A DNA stretch of 64,000 bases from Candidatus Magasanikiibacteriota bacterium (lineage in GTDB: Bacteria; Patescibacteriota; Patescibacteriia; Magasanikbacterales; UBA922), in the NCBI GenBank assembly GCA_018651085.1, contig JABIEQ010000002.1, positions 12,777-76,776 of the forward strand, in the 5' to 3' direction. This document shows positions 12,765-58,144 of the stretch, in pieces. Each line of letters opens with the position of its first letter. The first letter of the stretch is position 1. The position numbers were made by a program, and so were the translations under genes. The notes beneath the pieces were generated by a model, which saw only the letters and a program-made list of their open reading frames with translations, did not search any database and had not been told where the DNA came from.

Positions 12765-13382
12765 ATGTTGCCCTTAGACATCAAAGAGGAGTTTGTAAAA
12801 ATTTGGGACATGGCATTGCCGTATCAAGATAAAAGAGATGACAAAGGACATGCTAGAATTGTGACCGAGTATGCTATAAAACTTTGTAGTATTGAAAATG
12901 CAGAGGATAAAATTGTTGTTCCCGCTGCTATTTTGCATGATATTGGTTGGAGTCAACTTTCAAAGAAAGATCGGTTTGTTATATTTAGGCCAGATAAGAC
13001 GCCTGAAATGGAATATGCGGTGCGTATAAAGCATCAGGATGAGGGAGTTAAGTTGGCTGAGAAAATATTAAATAAAGTAGGTTATCCTTCTATTTTTTTA
13101 AAATCAATTTTAGAAATTATTTCGCAACATGATACAAGGAAAAATTTTCTTTCAAACGAAGATGGCGCTATGCGTGATGCTGATAAATTATGGCGATATA
13201 CAAAAGTTGGTTTTGATGCAGATCTGAGGTCTCGAGAATGTTCATTTGAATTTTATTATAAAAGGTTGGAAGATTTTATTGGTAAAGAAAACTTTTTCTA
13301 TTTTGATTCAGCAAGAGATATTGCTATGAAGGAATTAATGGATAGAAAAGAAGATTGTTCTGATAGGATTGATATTATGTAA
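12765..13382 (+). CDS. HD-domain phosphohydrolase
   Basis: HD motif (AAILHDIGW) and downstream His/Asp residues; 205 aa. Confidence 0.6.
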   Translation: MLPLDIKEEFVKIWDMALPYQDKRDDKGHARIVTEYAIKLCSIENAEDKIVVPAAILHDIGWSQLSKKDRFVIFRPDKTPEMEYAVRIKHQDEGVKLAEKILNKVGYPSIFLKSILEIISQHDTRKNFLSNEDGAMRDADKLWRYTKVGFDADLRSRECSFEFYYKRLEDFIGKENFFYFDSARDIAMKELMDRKEDCSDRIDIM

Positions 13383-13742
13383 TACAATTTAACCTCTAAA
13401 TTTGCCCATTTATTTTATATATAGGGTATTTTTGTGTTATTTGTAATACATAGAAGTTTACACGATAGCACAATGTTATGGTGTTTTTTTATTGTATAGA
13501 GGGCCTCTTTGTACTTGACATATTGCTCATTTTTTGTTATGGTCTCCTGTTGTGATTTGATGAGTTTTTTCGATTTTATCAATCAGTTTTTGTATAAATG
13601 AAAATTGATTGGTGAAATCGAAAGTAAAAGCTATGGCCCGGCCTCACAATCGTGTGAGGTGTCGGCATCCTGAATGGACAGGATGGCTCTGATTGTATCA
13701 GAGTGGAGCCACACTGGCTTATAGAAAGAGAAAGAGGTACAT

Positions 13743-14285
13743 ATGTCTCAAGATGAAGAGATCATCTTGACGTGGACCCCAACGGATAAGAACGCTGTGA
13801 TCACGATCAACAGCTTTCCCTTCCCTGACGGAGAAGCTCTGGAGCTGCGGGGGGTGTCTCGAAGGGGGTATCACCTTTTCTTGCCGGAAAAATCTGGCGG
13901 CGAGCTCCCAAAGATCGAGAAGGCCTTCGGCCTCTGGGCAGGCCAGATCATGGCCAAGGTGGAGCGCCGAATCGTGGTTGCGTTTGAGAGAACGCGAATT
14001 GAAGAACACGATGGATTTTATTTCATCGTTCCTCTTCGCCATGATCTGGTGTCAGCAGACACCGACGGGGACACTCTTCACGAGTTCCCTTTCGACCACA
14101 CCGTCTTCACCGCTCGTTCACAGCTCGGGACGTACCATTTTCGGATGGACATTCCCGACGGGAACGTGGAAGATGTTCGGCAGTCATTGATTGCTTGGGC
14201 CGAAGGTCTCGAGTTCGTGTACCTTTATTGGGACGAACTCGTTGCAACCGATGACCCGAAGCACACCCTCCGCATCTCCCTTTGA
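13743..14285 (+). CDS. hypothetical protein encoded in a GC-rich island (about 55% GC versus about 38% background)
   Basis: 180-aa ORF with protein-like composition; long structured 5' leader; no recognisable motif. Confidence 0.5.
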   Translation: MSQDEEIILTWTPTDKNAVITINSFPFPDGEALELRGVSRRGYHLFLPEKSGGELPKIEKAFGLWAGQIMAKVERRIVVAFERTRIEEHDGFYFIVPLRHDLVSADTDGDTLHEFPFDHTVFTARSQLGTYHFRMDIPDGNVEDVRQSLIAWAEGLEFVYLYWDELVATDDPKHTLRISL

Positions 14286-14457
14286 GTCGTCTAGACTTCC
14301 TCGCGAGCTCTCGCGTATACCTGAGCCGGCGCTTCGTATGTCTGTTAGATACGATTGGCTTCTGTCGAGCTGCCATACTAAATGCTCGACACTTCCCTTA
14401 TCACATTCTTTAATCGAAGGATGTGATATAGAAGAATGCTATTCACTCTATTGAATT

Positions 14458-14490
14458 TAAAAATGATCTTCATATGAAGATCATTTTTTG
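14458..14490. terminator. bidirectional intrinsic terminator
   Basis: aaaaatgatcttcatatgaagatcatttttt perfect hairpin flanked by A/T runs, between convergent genes. Confidence 0.65.
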
Positions 14491-14510
14491 TTATTCTTTT
14501 TGTACGTGTA

Positions 14511-15236
14511 TTAAAAGAAGATTATGTTAATCAAAGAAACAGTAATAACTGTTTGAATAAAACTTTTCCAATGGTTTCCTTTTGGAAACATGAAAATGTG
14601 TTGCATACGTACTGGAAGATAGAATGCTCCTAGAAGGATGGTGGTCCCTATGAGGTTTGTAAGAATGTCTGACTCATTAATAGTATAAAATTGATTGGTT
14701 ACAATAGAAAAAAGAATTGCAGATTGTAATATAAGAACTATGGTAGCGATTATATTTTTATAGGAAACCATTGGTGTTTCTTTTTTTGTTTTTGACCGAA
14801 GTGCAATGGTATAAAATAATGGAATACAACTTATAGTAAAAGCAATAAGAATAAAAAATAGGATGCCTCCAAAAAAGGTGTGATAAAATATATCAATAAT
14901 GTTTGGAATATATAATGTTACGATATTTTGTATGACGTAATGGAAAAAAATGAATGCCATGATCATTGGTCCACCAAGATACATCGTGAACATCGTAAGA
15001 AGTGGGTACTCTTTGGTAATTTTTTGCACTCCTTTTTGGTAGTGTGGTGTAAAGGCTAATAGTATGATTGTAATAATAAAAAGGATGGTACTGATTCCTG
15101 GCCAAAAAGAAGTTGTTGGTAAAATAGCTTCTCGTATATAAGGGATTTGTATAATACCTGCAATTCCAATCGCTAAAAGATCAAATAAGTGGAAACGAAT
15201 CCAACTATCTTCGAATATGTCTGTTTCTCTACTCAT
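14511..15236 (-). CDS. polytopic integral membrane protein (6-7 TM), function unknown
   Basis: 241 aa, highly hydrophobic with multiple TM segments; weak CPBP-like FxxxH...N pattern only. Confidence 0.5.
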   Translation of the reverse strand: MSRETDIFEDSWIRFHLFDLLAIGIAGIIQIPYIREAILPTTSFWPGISTILFIITIILLAFTPHYQKGVQKITKEYPLLTMFTMYLGGPMIMAFIFFHYVIQNIVTLYIPNIIDIFYHTFFGGILFFILIAFTISCIPLFYTIALRSKTKKETPMVSYKNIIATIVLILQSAILFSIVTNQFYTINESDILTNLIGTTILLGAFYLPVRMQHIFMFPKGNHWKSFIQTVITVSLINIIFF

Positions 15237-39758: not shown

Positions 39759-40176
39759 AGTGTTATGTGTTTGATCCTATCAGAGTTTTGTGTGTTTTTC
39801 AATATATGTTATTTTTTGTATGTTTGCTGTTGACAGTTTTTTTCTGATATGGCAATGTGGATATATACCTATATGAATCAAGCAATTTATACAATGTGTC
39901 ATGACCTCAAGATGTGGAGTATTACGCTCCGCTCTGTTGTGTTTGGTGTGTTTACACCTTTCCGGAGGCATGTTGTATCGAAGTAATTATTTTCTACTTT
40001 TATAAAACAAGCCGCCGGATAAATCTGGCGGCTTTTTTCTTTGTTGTCTAAGAGTGTACATCTTACCTAGTTGTATACCCTTAGGCCCCAACGTATACCC
40101 TTTACACGTGACACGATGATATGGGATTTGGCCTGATCCCACATATATTGTCGTTGTTCTTTTCTGGAGAAGGACT

Positions 40177-40431
40177 ATGGTTCCCTTGCCTCCTGGTGCG
40201 AGTGCTCATTTTTACACCGTCTATGGACGGCGGTTCGATTCTGACGGTAACCCTCTCGACGGAACGTCGACTCCTATGCCTCACCGGCCTGGTGGGTCAC
40301 ACATGGATTTCGGGCCTGACCCCGAGCGACCGAGCCCTCCGGGGGTTCTGCTCGAGTTCACGCTTAAGAAGGATGATGATGGCGAGGCTCCCGCCTCGCG
40401 TCCCGCTGCCCCTGCGGCGGTTGCTCGATGA
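40177..40431 (+). CDS. hypothetical Pro/Gly/Asp-rich small ORF within GC-rich island B (may be non-coding)
   Basis: 84-aa ORF in a 62% GC segment, GGAGAAGG RBS-like upstream; long ORFs arise by chance in GC-rich DNA. Confidence 0.2.
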   Translation: MVPLPPGASAHFYTVYGRRFDSDGNPLDGTSTPMPHRPGGSHMDFGPDPERPSPPGVLLEFTLKKDDDGEAPASRPAAPAAVAR

Positions 40432-40590
40432 TCGAGCGCCCTTCTGACGGTCCATCCGTATCCTCCTCCAACACAGACGGACACTTCATTTGCAAGTGTC
40501 CGTCTGCCCGCCTCATATGTCATAAACATTGTTTGTGGCATATGAAGCGGGTTTGCCTTTCTTTTTTTGTCTGATACAATTATAAACACT

Positions 40591-40935
40591 ATGTTATATC
40601 ATAAGAGTGATGCAAAATCATTTACTATTCCTGGTGGTACTGAAGGTGTATTGTATCCACCTAGCTTAAAAGGGGATCAGAGTGTTGCTGTTATTTCGAT
40701 GGATGGTCATTATCCTAAAGAAGGGTACTCACGAAATGATGTATGTACGGAAACGTTGTATCTTCTTGAGGGGGCATTTGAAATTGAATATGATGGAGCA
40801 TGGCATACACTTATTCCAGGTGACATATTTATGATATTACCTGATCATAAATATAGAACAAAAGGAAAAGGAAAAGCATGTGTATTTATTACTCCATCGT
40901 GGGATAGTGCGCAAAATCATATTACGTTAACTTAA
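40591..40935 (+). CDS. cupin-domain protein
   Basis: Small beta-barrel protein with cupin-like motifs; TTG at 40567, first ATG 40591. Confidence 0.45.
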   Translation: MLYHKSDAKSFTIPGGTEGVLYPPSLKGDQSVAVISMDGHYPKEGYSRNDVCTETLYLLEGAFEIEYDGAWHTLIPGDIFMILPDHKYRTKGKGKACVFITPSWDSAQNHITLT

Positions 40936-42068: not shown

Positions 42069-42763
42069 AGGGTGTGTATAGTTTTTTTGTACATTCCTTG
42101 CAGAATGGTTTTTCCTTTGGTATAGTGAAAAAAGTGAAATATATAATAATGTATGAGATTACTTGGTAAGACAACTCTGTTTATTTCTTTCCCCTGGCAT
42201 GTGGTAGCTTTTTCTTTTCGCCACATTCTGTTTATTGTGGGAGGGAACGGGGTATATGCTTATCAACACGAATGTATGTAGTGGTTGAGTAATAAGATTG
42301 TATACCCCACAGATGTGGGGTATTTTATTTGAGTATGGATAGAAGAAATGATTATCATTTCTTCTATGCGTACGCAAGTACGCAGGCCCCCGCAATACTG
42401 GGAAATATAGCGGTGGGAAGAAAAACACAACACTCTGGGAGTGAGGCTTTCTATCTAACATATATAGGTAAAAGGTCTCATTCCTTCGCTCTTTACCATT
42501 TTACACTGCAAGAGTCACCATTTGGTGGCTTTTTGCTTTGTTGACACCAATTTATTTTTATAGTACGGTATATCGTCGTATCTAAACATAAAGAAAAGCA
42601 TATCTTTATTTGGTATATTTTTCTTTCTTTTTAGTGATTCGTTGCTCGAAAGGAACTGGTCGTGCACTGCGCCAGGCGTATCTGCGAAGCAGTATCTGTC
42701 ATTCTTAGATCCAGCCATAGCGCTGGTGCGGGAGAAAAAGAAATGCCGAACTCGTTGAAATAA

Positions 42764-43249
42764 TTGAAACCGGGGGTTTACCGGCTTCATGATCCTAGTA
42801 GGCCAGGAGGTCGCTGGGAGTGGGTCCGCCTTGATGAGGTATCTCGAATTTTGGGGGTGAGCCCCTCGGACGTGCTAGAGCGGTACAAGCCGCTTTTCTG
42901 GCAACCCGGCGAGGATCTGCTTCAGATGGAGATGTCTCTCATGACCTCTTCTGGTGTGTTCTTGACCCATGTTCCGGGAGATCTTCGTTGGCTCTACGTA
43001 CCGAAGGGGTTCTCTGATGATGTCCTCACGGTCGCTAAACTGGGGATTGATTCTTTCCAAAAAGAGATGATGCCCCACTACATGACTACGGTTCCGCACG
43101 CGACGGTGCGAGCCTTTCGTCCTGTCCGGGGGCAGTGTCTTCTCATCGTGGGATACGTCGGCGAGGAACGCTACGATTCCACAGACGGGCGTAATCTGGC
43201 TCAACCACTCCTCAGGAGCCCCTGGCGCCCCTGTGGTCCTCCCATTTGA
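42764..43249 (+). CDS. hypothetical protein with N-terminal excisionase/AlpA-like HTH motif, in GC-rich island C
   Basis: 161-aa ORF at about 58% GC; VRLDEVSRILGVSPSDVLERY resembles HTH_17 (L..E.A..LGVS..T.YR); overlapping antisense ORF judged spurious. Confidence 0.35.
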   Translation: MKPGVYRLHDPSRPGGRWEWVRLDEVSRILGVSPSDVLERYKPLFWQPGEDLLQMEMSLMTSSGVFLTHVPGDLRWLYVPKGFSDDVLTVAKLGIDSFQKEMMPHYMTTVPHATVRAFRPVRGQCLLIVGYVGEERYDSTDGRNLAQPLLRSPWRPCGPPI

Positions 43250-43942
43250 ACTACAATAAGTCATCACGCATTGCATGGCGTTTGATGCCAGAGGCTTGTC
43301 CTCTGTTGGTTAGCTCATACCTATTTGAGCCGCGTCCTGCGTTACGGATCCTTTCCTTTAATGTCTTAGCGTTGATGCAACAGCTTCTAGGACCCTTCCC
43401 TTTGTTATCTTTTATGTAAAGATGGTAGGGGAAAGTGGGTATAAAGACACTTCACATTTGTGGGGTGTTTTTTGTTGTGGATAACTTATGGATATTTTTC
43501 TTGACCACTGTATATTCATGATGTACAGTACTTATGTTGTGGGGCGACAAGTGTTGTCTCCCCCGTTTTTCTTCCCCGTTACCTGGAGCCCGTTATGAAC
43601 GGCATCCCCAACATCCCTCTCTTCCCGATGGCTTTCCCGGCACACCCCGCGCGCCCGCTGCGTCCGGCCCACCCTGGCATCCCGCACACCCCGTGCTGGC
43701 CCTAGTCTGACGCCGATCGGCGAGAGAGAGATGGACCTTTCCCCTGCGGGGGAAGGATGAAGGCTTTCGGGTCGACCAACGCTGCTTGCAGCCTGGTCGA
43801 CCCGAGGGTTCGATCATATTTCACGCATTGCGTGTTTTTTTTATTGCATTAATTTTTTTATATTGTTGGTAAGGTAATTAAAAACGCCTCAAAGGGCGTT
43901 TTTAATTATGTTCTTTTATGATTGGATTGTTGTTGTTTGTAT

Positions 43943-54382: not shown

Positions 54383-57300
54383 ATGGGGTTATTTAATATT
54401 ACTACTATGTTTCGTAGGCATTCTTTTTCGTCGATAGAAAAGGTGGGAATTTATACGTTAGCCTTTTTATTTATTGGAATGGAACTTTGGGGAGCTTTTT
54501 TCTTACCATCTTCATTTCAGTCAGAAAATGTGTCTTCTCCTTTGTTTTATCCAGTTGTACAAGCCGCTACTGTAACCATTGATGTTACTACTTCGACTGA
54601 TGCGTATGACACTGGTGCTGGTGCTAATGGATCTTGTTCACTTCGAGAAGCTATCGGTAAAGCAAATGGTGATAATCTTCCTGATTGCCCTTATTCTGCT
54701 GAACCGGTGTCAGGGGACACTATACAAATTAATTTATCATCAGGTACGACATACAATCTTACTCGTGATGGAGCAGGGCTTGGGGATGATAATAATGATA
54801 GAGGAGATTTAGACATTGCTACGTCTACAGCTGTAACTATAGCTATCGCACCAACCGGAACAGCATATGCAACTATTGATGCGAGTGGTCTTGGTACACT
54901 TGAGCGTGTAATGCATATAGTGACAGACGGGCCATCTATATCTTTAGATAAAATGGTGATTACTTCAGGAGATACCAACGGAGCCTTTAGTGTTGGTGAA
55001 GGACGTGGTGCTGGTATTTATATTGCTAACGGAGACGTTACTATTAATAATAGTGTGGTGAAGTCAAATGACTCTGCATTTGATGGTGGGGGAATTTATG
55101 TAGAAAGCACAGGAACGTTAACACTTACGAGTACAACTCTTCATTCAAACACTGTAAGTGGTGCTGCTGGTGGGGATGCCTTTGGTGGAGGAATTTATAA
55201 CGATGGGACGGATCTTACTATTACAAGTAGTACTTTTACATCAAATGTTACGTCAAATACCACAGTTAATGATGGTCATGGTGGAGGATTATATACTTCT
55301 GGTGGAACGGTAACAATTACAAGTAGTACCTTTTCTTTAAATCAAGCTGCTAGAGAAAGTGAATCAGCTGATGGGGGAGCAGTATATCAAGGAGGAGGGA
55401 CTGTGACTATTACCGATAGTACTCTTTCTACAAATTCTTCGGGAGATGATGGAGGTGGATTGTATGTTGGTAGTGCAACAACAACTATCACGAATTCTAC
55501 GTTTACATTAAACACAGCCTCTACTACTCGTAGTGCCGCCGCCGGTGGTGGACTATATGGAACTGCGGGAATTGTGACTATTACTAGTAGTACGTTTAGT
55601 TATAATTACGCAGGGTCTAGTGGTGGTGGAACGAGGGTGGATAGTAGCTCTACAATTACGATTACAAGTAGTACATTTAAAGGAAATTCTGCACAAGCAA
55701 ATGGTGGAGGAGTGTATGTTGATACTGGAACAGCGACAATTACTGGTGGTCTTTATACACTGAACATGGCGACATCAAGTTCTCGTTCTGGTGGTGCGAT
55801 ATATAACGATACGAGTGCGATGACGATTACGAGTGCAACTATTCGAGGAAATGAAGCCGGAGCAAGTGGTGGAGGAATTCTTTCTTCAGGGACAACACTT
55901 ACACTTAGTGATTCAATAATTTCGTTTAATACTTCAACGGATGGTGGTGGAATTTATTCAGGAGGTACCACCTTTATTATGAGTGATAGTAGTATCACTT
56001 CTAATCTTGCTTCTTCTACAAATGCACAAGGGGGAGGATTATATTTAAATTCTGGTACGGTAACAATTACGAGTAGTACAATTAATACAAATCTTGCTGA
56101 CGATAATGGTGGAGGAATTTATATGGGGACTGCTTCTACTACTATTTCTGATACGACCATTACTTCTAATACTGCTTCTTCGACTCGTACGAATGCTTTT
56201 GGTGGGGGAATTGATAATTTTAATGGACTTCTTTTGATGACAAGTAGTACGATTAGTTCTAACACTGCTGGTGGAGATGGTGGAGGAATTTATAATAGTG
56301 CTACAACAACTTTAGCGAATGTCACTATTAGTTCAAATACTGCGAATGATGATGGTGGTGGGGTATTTAATAATGCTGATACGACAAGTTTCAGTCATGT
56401 TACTGTTGTATTAAATAGTGCTGCTAGTGATGCTGCTGGCCTGTGGGTTCAATCTGATAATGTTACTCTTGTTAATACGTTATTTGCTACAAATACGTTG
56501 TCTAATGGAAATTTAGAAAACTGTCAGGTGAATGGTGGAAGTTTGACGTCTAGTGGAAATAATTTAGAGGCGTCTACGAGTACTTTGTATAGTTGTAATT
56601 TAACGGAAACATCTGATGTTACTACTACTGTGGCAATTGCTACTATTTTAAACACGACCCTTGCTTTGAATGGTGGAAAGACGATGAATCATGCACTTGT
56701 GACGAGTAGTCCTGCTATTGATGTTGGTGGGTTTCCATCATTTGGTTCTGATCAACGAGGAACATTGCGACCACAAGGAGCAATGCCTGATATTGGATCA
56801 TATGAATTTGTGCCTTTAGATCAAGGGGTGACAGTTTCTCAATCAGCTATTAGTGTGAGTGAAGGAAGTGGTGCTAGTACATATACTCTTGTCTTAGATG
56901 TTGTTCCTCGTGCTGACGTTGATGTGACGGTTGCTGGTTCCTCGGGCGATATTTCTATTAGTCCGTCCTCTCTTACTTTTTCTACTTCAACATGGAATGT
57001 TCCGCAGACAGTGAGTGTGACTGCTGTTGATGATTCGACTGTGGAGAGTACTGAAAGTGCAACAGTTACTCATACGGCATCTACTACGGATAGTGCGTAT
57101 GCTACAGCTGGTATTTCATCTGTTACTGTTACTATTACTGATAATGATACTAATTCAAGCGGTGGTGGAAGCGTTATTGTGCATAAAATCCCATCTTTTT
57201 CTTCTGATACGCCAATTCAAATTAATGGTGGTGCTCTTACTGTAGATGATACTGCTGTTATTCTTTCTTTTGATGTGGCTACTTCTCCTGATGTTATTCA

Positions 57301-58144
57301 AATGGCTGTTGAAAATGGCCAAGGAATATCTTCATCTGACTTTGTACCCTACACTAAAACGATGGCGTGGGAATTAAGTCCTGGAAATGGAAAGAAACAA
57401 GTGTGTGCTCGTTTTAGAACAGCACAAGGAGCTGTTCGTGATGCGTGTACGTCTATTGAATTAGTTGGTCAGGAATTTAATGCTCCTTCTGAAATAACAT
57501 GTGCGGTTTCTTCTGGTAATGCATATAAACATCCTGATGCATTACGTAAAGATGTGTGGTATGTCTTTCCTGGTGTGAATGGTGAACAATGTACGAAGCG
57601 GGCTTTTTCTGGGGCATATATTTTCTTTACGTACTTCTCTGATTGGAGTCAGGTTGTGTTAGATAAAGAAATTGATGTGGTAAAAGAAGATACTCTTATG
57701 TTTATGCCATATGGTCCATTGTTACCTCGGCAGTATGGAGCGCTTGTAAAGACCACAGATAACGCCGATGTGTATTTATTAGTTGGTGATCAATCATATA
57801 CGTTTGATTCTCTTTCTACTCTTCGTACACTTGGATACAATACGTCTTACATCATTGATGTTGATGGACGGGTCCTTGATCAATATACGTATCTTGGAGA
57901 CATTGATTATATTGATCATCATCCGACATATGCTTTGATTAAGTATCAAGGTGCTTCTACCGTGTATTATGTTGATGAAAAGGATAATGTACAGGTTCGT
58001 CGTGAAGTTGATAGTTTAGAGACCCTTCGCGCACTTGGTCTTCGTACTGATCTTGATATTATACGAAATGTTGCGTTGTTTTCTCCAACAGATGCGTACG
58101 TGATCTATCCTGATGGAGATGCATTTACCTTGAATGACATATAG
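54383..58144 (+). CDS. giant surface protein with polymorphic-membrane-protein (Pmp)-type beta-helix repeats and C-terminal Ig/Calx-beta-like domains
   Basis: 1253 aa; N-terminal TM/signal; more than 15 tandem repeats carrying GG[GA][IVL]Y and F[TS]xN motifs; Thr/Ser-rich; C-terminal VTAVDDSTVE-type beta-sandwich segments. Confidence 0.7.
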   Translation: MGLFNITTMFRRHSFSSIEKVGIYTLAFLFIGMELWGAFFLPSSFQSENVSSPLFYPVVQAATVTIDVTTSTDAYDTGAGANGSCSLREAIGKANGDNLPDCPYSAEPVSGDTIQINLSSGTTYNLTRDGAGLGDDNNDRGDLDIATSTAVTIAIAPTGTAYATIDASGLGTLERVMHIVTDGPSISLDKMVITSGDTNGAFSVGEGRGAGIYIANGDVTINNSVVKSNDSAFDGGGIYVESTGTLTLTSTTLHSNTVSGAAGGDAFGGGIYNDGTDLTITSSTFTSNVTSNTTVNDGHGGGLYTSGGTVTITSSTFSLNQAARESESADGGAVYQGGGTVTITDSTLSTNSSGDDGGGLYVGSATTTITNSTFTLNTASTTRSAAAGGGLYGTAGIVTITSSTFSYNYAGSSGGGTRVDSSSTITITSSTFKGNSAQANGGGVYVDTGTATITGGLYTLNMATSSSRSGGAIYNDTSAMTITSATIRGNEAGASGGGILSSGTTLTLSDSIISFNTSTDGGGIYSGGTTFIMSDSSITSNLASSTNAQGGGLYLNSGTVTITSSTINTNLADDNGGGIYMGTASTTISDTTITSNTASSTRTNAFGGGIDNFNGLLLMTSSTISSNTAGGDGGGIYNSATTTLANVTISSNTANDDGGGVFNNADTTSFSHVTVVLNSAASDAAGLWVQSDNVTLVNTLFATNTLSNGNLENCQVNGGSLTSSGNNLEASTSTLYSCNLTETSDVTTTVAIATILNTTLALNGGKTMNHALVTSSPAIDVGGFPSFGSDQRGTLRPQGAMPDIGSYEFVPLDQGVTVSQSAISVSEGSGASTYTLVLDVVPRADVDVTVAGSSGDISISPSSLTFSTSTWNVPQTVSVTAVDDSTVESTESATVTHTASTTDSAYATAGISSVTVTITDNDTNSSGGGSVIVHKIPSFSSDTPIQINGGALTVDDTAVILSFDVATSPDVIQMAVENGQGISSSDFVPYTKTMAWELSPGNGKKQVCARFRTAQGAVRDACTSIELVGQEFNAPSEITCAVSSGNAYKHPDALRKDVWYVFPGVNGEQCTKRAFSGAYIFFTYFSDWSQVVLDKEIDVVKEDTLMFMPYGPLLPRQYGALVKTTDNADVYLLVGDQSYTFDSLSTLRTLGYNTSYIIDVDGRVLDQYTYLGDIDYIDHHPTYALIKYQGASTVYYVDEKDNVQVRREVDSLETLRALGLRTDLDIIRNVALFSPTDAYVIYPDGDAFTLNDI

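Follow-up and report, generated by a model that had tools for sequence, protein, structure and literature searches.

The 64-kb stretch of Candidatus Magasanikiibacteriota DNA analyzed here (contig JABIEQ010000002.1, positions 12,777 to 76,776; hereafter the window) carries a short unit of unusually high guanine-plus-cytosine (GC) content, which we call island A. The unit comprises a promoter-like site, a long leader rich in hairpins, an open reading frame (ORF) for a 180-aa protein (ORF180), a structured 3' untranslated region (UTR) and a palindromic terminator (Table 1). It is seated in a convergent intergenic region of this marine patescibacterial genome, with an HD-phosphohydrolase gene on one side and a membrane-protein gene on the other. 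We propose that island A is probably a horizontally captured single-gene cassette of foreign origin whose messenger RNA (mRNA) is heavily structured and throttled in translation. By type it would be a foreign gene without relatives, one whose product already stands in the databases as a hypothetical protein, and its one notable property is the hairpin-saturated mRNA.

In sliding windows of 200 nt, the GC content of island A exceeds 0.48 without a break over 13624-14450 and reaches a maximum of 0.595, compared to a mean of 0.377 for the whole window (standard deviation of 200-nt windows, 0.05). The initial annotation, made from the sequence alone, had described an abrupt rise at about 13600-14450, and this was borne out, with GC climbing from 0.27-0.30 in the directly flanking intergenic DNA to 0.53-0.60 within the unit. 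The other elements that it had listed were also present: the promoter-like site, the 180-aa ORF on the plus strand and the strong bidirectional terminator (Table 1), a leader put at about 200 nt that measures about 190 nt (its start near 13550, the ATG at 13743), and two leader hairpins (CCTCACA/TGTGAGG at 13642-13659 and CTCTGAT/ATCAGAG at 13687-13703).

Table 1. Features of island A and of the other GC-rich units in the 64-kb window
Feature	Position	Strand	Details
Sigma-70-like promoter candidate, TTGACA-N17-TATGGT	13515-13543	+	10/12 positions; TG before the -10; best site in the region
Exact 14-nt direct repeat TCATTTTTTGTTAT, left copy	13527-13540	+	Possible target-site or att duplication
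AT-rich hairpin at the 5' end of the leader	13567-13624	+	27 uninterrupted bp: 21 Watson-Crick and 6 G-U pairs
GC-rich core	13634-14400	+	767 nt; 53.6% GC versus 37.7% for the window
Short GC-rich leader hairpins	13641-13721	+	13641-13660, 13666-13685, 13686-13704; alternative 13707-13719
Purine-rich, largely unpaired stretch with Shine-Dalgarno (SD)-like AGAGGT	13722-13742	+	AGAGGT at 13733-13738, 4 nt 5' of the ATG
Hairpin enclosing the start codon	13742-13774	+	-10.8 kcal/mol; 9-bp perfect stem at 13748-13770
Coding sequence (CDS) of ORF180, 180-aa acidic soluble orphan protein	13743-14285	+	ORF call, codon-position signal, ORF-length test
Structured 3' UTR	14286-14458	+	Hairpins at 14302-14315, 14334-14354, 14363-14391, 14399-14428
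Palindromic intrinsic terminator, A5-stem-T6	14459-14488	both	Perfect 13-bp palindrome; about -14 kcal/mol on either strand
Exact 14-nt direct repeat TCATTTTTTGTTAT, right copy	14481-14494	+	Overlaps the T-tract of the terminator
Convergent membrane-protein gene	14511-15236	-	Shares the palindromic terminator with the ORF180 unit
Island B, GC-rich unit	40061-40602		Maximum GC 0.66; 84-aa ORF at 40177-40431, SD-like motif upstream
Island C, GC-rich unit	42617-43419		Maximum GC 0.595; 161-aa ORF at 42764-43249, SD-like motif upstream
Island D, GC-rich unit	43452-43901		Maximum GC 0.68; short Pro-rich ORF from about 43596, SD-like motif upstream

Coding status and orphan protein of ORF180

ORF180 is a genuine coding sequence. 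Its base usage depends on codon position far more than that of comparably long chance frames (chi-square of 41.4, compared to 7.4 ± 4.0 and a maximum of 24.2 among 400 shuffled ORFs of at least 140 codons). Dinucleotide shuffling of the GC-rich core yielded an ORF of its length in only 1.4% of 5000 trials, which is a weak test alone. Codon periodicity is symmetric under reverse complement, and the antisense strand holds open frames only in pieces of 107 aa and 89 aa; because the antisense frame is broken, the plus strand is taken as the coding strand. GC contents at the three codon positions (GC1/2/3) are 0.61/0.38/0.64, a profile typical of genes in genomes of about 55% GC (the Muto and Osawa relation). 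The stretch just upstream of the SD core (13722-13733) has a calculated unpaired probability of 0.86-0.99.

The encoded protein contains 31 Asp and Glu residues against 18 Lys and Arg, has no Cys, and shows neither a signal peptide nor a transmembrane segment. Its two halves align weakly with each other (BLASTP E = 0.086; Smith-Waterman permutation p = 0.0185), and this alignment is consistent with a repeated strand-strand-helix-strand pattern in an otherwise poor single-sequence AF2 model. A Foldseek comparison of that model against the PDB was meaningless (best E = 0.54, TM of at most 0.28).

The initial annotation had found no recognisable motif in the 180-aa ORF, and wider searches agree. 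Sequence searches of Pfam, PHROGs, PADLOC, NCBIfam and the PDB gave no matches at all, and both a word-indexed search of 5.8 billion clusters and an exhaustive HMMER search of 1.84 billion representative proteins returned only ORF180 itself. Phage and plasmid blastn searches and scans of IMG/VR proteins and DNA likewise recovered nothing matching island A or ORF180. Homologs of similar GC content were found in none of the protein collections searched. Judged by these sequence searches, ORF180 is a strict orphan. In NCBI Candidatus Magasanikbacteria metagenome-assembled genomes, its product is recorded as "hypothetical protein."

Local structure in the transcript

The plus-strand transcript of the unit has far more local structure than its composition or its protein sequence requires. 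When folding energies were compared to those of dinucleotide shuffles, z-scores were strongly negative for the leader (-6.8), the CDS (-6.2 on the plus strand and -5.7 on the minus strand), the 3' UTR (-6.0) and the 767-nt core as a whole (-6.8). In 200-nt windows, z-scores were close to 0 for native coding DNA, ran from -2 to -2.8 for RNase P RNA, and stayed at -1.6 to -6 throughout island A. A second control shuffled synonymous codons, leaving protein and codon usage unchanged; here ORF180 scored -5.16 against +0.5 for the HD control gene, with -2.3 for the ORF of island C and -0.4 for that of island B. The interiors of islands B, C and D are not unusually structured, and the hairpin excess is therefore particular to island A.

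The excess is local, because capping the pair span at 120 nt still left a z-score of -6.1 for the core. Across 13540-14500 there are 12 perfect hairpins of at least 6 bp, including two 9-bp ones within the CDS (13748-13770 and 14210-14241). For the AT-rich hairpin that opens the leader, the folding energy is -28.4 kcal/mol on the plus strand but only -12.8 kcal/mol on the minus strand, which marks the hairpin as an RNA-level, plus-strand feature; a 27-bp duplex is of sufficient length for RNase III-type processing. The initiation region of ORF180 (-30 to +33) folds at -12.2 kcal/mol and is more structured than that of every one of 43 native genes tested (-6.4 ± 2.6, minimum -11.2). Promoter-like sites are not enriched in the region (3, compared to 2.8 ± 1.3 in shuffles), and no terminator was predicted between 13382 and 13743.

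Long-range pairing within the core does not exceed that of shuffles (z = -0.9 for the gain; 44 pairs spanning more than 300 nt, compared to 42 ± 19), so that the 5'-3' panhandle in the full-length minimum-free-energy structure is not significant. For the same reason, a rod-like fold of the Obelisk or deltavirus type was considered and rejected. Island A is like those replicons in its length of about 1 kb, its GC content above that of the host, its single orphan ORF of about 180-200 aa and its highly paired RNA. Unlike them, it is chromosomal, is flanked by host genes, lacks the long-range pairing and has no ribozyme motif, the Rfam scan of island A having matched no ribozyme family.

Three further comparisons concern individual hairpins. 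A search for a repeated hairpin family, similar to repetitive extragenic palindromes (REP) or miniature inverted-repeat transposable elements (MITE), found none within the window. Of the 22 copies of the 7-mer AGATCAT/ATGATCT in the 64 kb, five fall within 730 nt (13759-14484), mostly in complementary helix arms, those of the terminator included; as a motif signal, this enrichment is largely explained by two helices that hold the 7-mer and its complement. Finally, a hairpin in the CDS (13883-13901, GCCGGAAAAATCTGGCGGC) matches the terminator hairpin upstream of island B (40014-40032, GCCGGATAAATCTGGCGGC) at 18 of 19 nt (BLAST-short E = 0.027), a likeness that could be due to chance or to shared origin.

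Given such a transcript, island A might function chiefly as a large structured RNA, either non-coding or dual-function, in which the 180-codon ORF is fortuitous or secondary. Several observations fit this idea. Stable structure in an AT-rich genome needs G and C, which would explain the high GC content; z-scores near -6 extend over leader, CDS and 3' UTR; the structure exceeds what the protein sequence demands, as the synonymous shuffle shows; ORF180 has no protein homolog and a poor AF2 model; and shuffles of island composition routinely contain ORFs of 100 codons. The large GC-rich intergenic RNAs OLE, GOLLD, ROOL and raiA, and the search for GC-rich intergenic regions developed in the Breaker laboratory, provide the closest precedent: there too, a GC-rich stretch (0.8 kb in this case) stands out from an AT-rich genome, has strongly negative z-scores for folding and possesses its own terminator. 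However, in island A an SD-led coding ORF occupies 70% of that stretch, the structure consists of simple local hairpins rather than an ornate multi-domain fold, no Rfam family matches, and there is no family of sequences to support covariation. The codon-position signal lies far beyond that of shuffled long ORFs, the SD motif and ATG are set at an unpaired purine-rich stretch, the amino acid composition is natural, and the weak internal duplication agrees with predicted secondary structure. We regard this reading, in its non-coding or dual-function form, as unlikely.

Origin of island A

Codon usage sets ORF180 apart from its neighbors. Its GC3 is 0.64 compared to 0.22-0.28 in native genes, it prefers ATC over ATT (9/3, compared to 29/134 in native genes) and TTC over TTT (8/4, compared to 22/117), and it contains no TTA codon, of which the native genes have 58. 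The amino acid composition is shifted as well, with 12 Arg to 6 Lys; in general, native proteins of AT-rich genomes prefer Lys to Arg. The start signal is also out of keeping. Almost all native genes of the window are without an SD motif (37 of 46 ORFs of at least 150 aa lack a 4-nt SD core near any early start), and the organism apparently initiates translation mostly without SD pairing, whereas GAGGT precedes the ATG of ORF180. The ORFs of GC islands B and D are SD-preceded in the same way.

An exact 14-nt direct repeat, TCATTTTTTGTTAT, brackets the 954-bp unit. These two are its only exact copies in the 64 kb, and 0.17 matches with at most one mismatch would be expected across the whole window. 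By a rough post hoc estimate, the chance of a 14-nt repeat pair bracketing island A is about 0.002. Because the repeat was found post hoc, we treat it as a candidate insertion scar only. The putative empty site before insertion would have read ...TTGACATATTGC-TCATTTTTTGTTAT-TCTTTTTG..., with the 14 nt duplicated on insertion. Since the -10 hexamer straddles the end of the left repeat copy, a promoter at this place would be a hybrid of host and insert.

Taken together, these observations lead us to favor horizontal capture, as the initial annotation had suggested; the break in composition, the codon usage and the SD-led start support this claim, and the search for a donor or homolog failed everywhere that was searched. 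We speculate that foreign DNA from a host, a virus or a mobile element was taken up and then inserted at the 14-nt site; the initial annotation had named a higher-GC host or neighbor of an episymbiont as a conceivable donor. Natural competence, which has been demonstrated in Patescibacteria (Saccharibacteria; PMC10633639), could offer a plausible route of DNA entry in this lineage. Transcription could start at the promoter-like site or read through out of the HD gene. The 27-bp hairpin and the tandem GC-rich hairpins at both ends may then act as a processing and stabilizing element against 5' and 3' exonucleolytic decay, and the hairpin around the AUG may limit translation initiation. In that case the mRNA would be long lived but translated only weakly, and its product would be a small acidic alpha/beta protein of the cytoplasm.

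Known genomic islets that carry horizontally acquired orphan genes share much with island A: an abrupt break in GC content and codon usage, a single small ORF without homologs, an intergenic position, a short flanking direct repeat and a tRNA gene about 1 kb away. The differences are that no donor, integrase, transposase or relative of island A appeared in the searches made, and that its transcript is far more structured than would be expected of ordinary transferred genes. Other findings also weigh against the proposed capture. Had the gene come recently from an ordinary bacterium, it is odd that some 15 billion proteins include no donor or homolog, and no mobility gene, whether integrase or transposase, lies within 10 kb on either side. 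By dinucleotide signature, island A is only modestly atypical (delta* = 164; in the host, the 95th percentile is 150 and the maximum 205). The 14-nt repeat is T-rich and was picked out post hoc, and about four further, unrelated 14-nt repeat pairs occur at spacings of 300-2000 nt in the window. A search through the flanking genes found no empty site, as even the closest relatives share no more than 72% identity in the HD protein and lack synteny. The single-sequence AF2 model is unusable (pLDDT of 41), and the stabilizing and throttling roles given above to the hairpins are inference only.

Among relatives whose HD protein is 66-72% identical, the island is missing after the HD gene and synteny is lost, and among the exact-match contigs there is no strain without it, as all carry island A. 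In the related locus L006 (5029-11949), whose HD protein is 72% identical, a tyrosine integrase stands on one side of the HD gene, and a cluster of RadC/DNA-methylase, HpaII-like restriction enzyme, Vsr and OLD-family ATPase genes stands on the other; such flanks show that the neighborhood of the HD gene is variable and island-prone in this lineage.

If island A was indeed captured from outside, it would be a clean, population-fixed case of foreign DNA uptake by a genome-reduced patescibacterium, complete with a candidate insertion scar. Its start signal and codon usage, which do not fit the new host, could inform how episymbionts acquire and express novelty. The selection-like excess of hairpins inside the CDS could point to engineering of mRNA stability, to RNase III processing or to a dual-function RNA. 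Otherwise, ORF180 is one more hypothetical orphan gene.

An alternative hypothesis is that ORF180 is native and lineage specific, and that selection for mRNA structure or stability has raised its GC-rich synonymous codons. The structure signal does reside at synonymous sites, the AT-rich leader hairpin with its six G-U pairs looks native and long evolved, no donor was found, and the dinucleotide signature is only marginally foreign. Yet the shift goes beyond GC3 to include amino acid composition and GC1, the three codon positions together fit a genome of about 55% GC, and the GC content of the core is just as high in its non-coding portions on the 5' and 3' sides. An SD-led start is out of character in this genome, the unit is bracketed by a direct repeat, and three other unrelated GC-rich units stand in the same 64 kb, one of them also an orphan. 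A native origin thus appears improbable to us.

It is also conceivable, though doubtful, that island A and perhaps the three other GC-rich units represent an undescribed type of small mobile cassette, captured by an ultrasmall marine patescibacterium, in which the hairpinned RNA is selected as much as the protein. Such a cassette could be a dual-function RNA or the relic of a structured RNA or single-stranded DNA replicon, with a 14-nt target and a promoter shared between host and insert. Among known mobile elements, integron gene cassettes are similar in their length of about 0.5-1 kb, their single and often orphan ORF, their atypical GC content and the imperfect palindromes 3' of the ORF. 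In contrast, island A has its own promoter-like site and terminator, belongs to no array, has no IntI nearby, and shows neither attC architecture nor a GTTRRRY core at its boundary, as judged by inspection and not with an attC covariance model. By the same inspection, its 3' UTR contains just one GTTRRRY (14343-14349), in an internal position, and the palindromes on the 3' side are simple hairpins of 21-30 nt.

The initial annotation had further suggested that the leader could be a riboswitch or transcription attenuator controlling ORF180. Length (about 190 nt) and significant structure would suit such a role, and the CCUC/GAGG pairing in the first GC-rich hairpin could in principle compete with the real SD motif. 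This part of the annotation did not hold up. Rfam 15 scans at gathering thresholds, and over 13350-14550 at E of at most 10, gave only chance miRNA-like matches, and no expression platform was found. A T-tract follows none of the leader hairpins, the terminator scan of 13544-13742 was empty, and no alternative terminator/antiterminator pair was found. The stretch just upstream of the SD core is mostly unpaired, and the AUG sits within a constitutive hairpin. The leader does not resemble a multi-helix aptamer but consists of separate hairpins in a row, most of them perfect, and neither a conserved relative from which to define an aptamer nor a homologous leader elsewhere was found. Because an equal hairpin excess runs on through the CDS and 3' UTR, it is a property of the whole transcript and not of a sensor in the leader. 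We consider control by a riboswitch or attenuator very unlikely.

Lastly, the shift in composition is abrupt and confined to about 0.8 kb, as it would be in an assembly chimera or contaminating fragment, but this reading is effectively refuted by the recurrence of both junctions, identical in MEGAHIT, SPAdes, JGI and Logan assemblies of different samples, so that the chimerism against which the initial annotation had advised a check is excluded. The exact 180-aa protein is recorded in 33 blocks of the public collection, and the island locus was found on at least 23 contigs from several samples, projects (several ENA projects among them) and assemblers. The 23 contigs that were read have the same gene order as the window, at 99.98-100% identity over 3-20 kb; island-bearing contigs reach 165 kb among the loci read and 863 kb on record, the latter in the NCBI entries with MBT3418824.1. 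A Saanich Inlet sample from 150 m (2011) is among those carrying the island, and a contig from 2010 also extends into ORF180. In every population sampled the island is fixed and essentially without variation; across copies, the lone single-nucleotide polymorphism in ORF180 is S39A, seen in one assembly.

Two observations accompany this comparison. Window positions 3743-24285 are 99.98-100% identical over up to 20 kb to loci L001, L003 and L009-L020, despite differing years, sites and projects, which indicates a remarkably clonal Magasanikbacteria population. In addition, two independent contigs terminate at 14394 and 14407, at the 3' composition boundary of island A.

Other elements in the window

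The genes around island A are ordinary, encoding a DAGK-like kinase, tRNA-Leu(GAG), the HD phosphohydrolase, a DsbA-like protein and RNase P RNA. No sequence kinship was found among the four GC-rich islands A to D. The 161-aa ORF of island C is also a strict orphan and has a weak stretch similar to a helix-turn-helix.

Between islands B and C, a moderately AT-rich intergenic stretch (42200-42540) has 200-nt z-scores of -6 to -8 on both strands and matched no Rfam family. Three similar terminator-like units, each a hairpin with a T-tract, lie at 42199-42217, 42520-42538 and 42608-42626. Further along, an ORF of 1253 aa (54383-58144) contains many internal direct DNA repeats, such as TGGTGGAGGAATTTATA at spacings of about 411-1095 nt, which indicates a repeat-domain protein.

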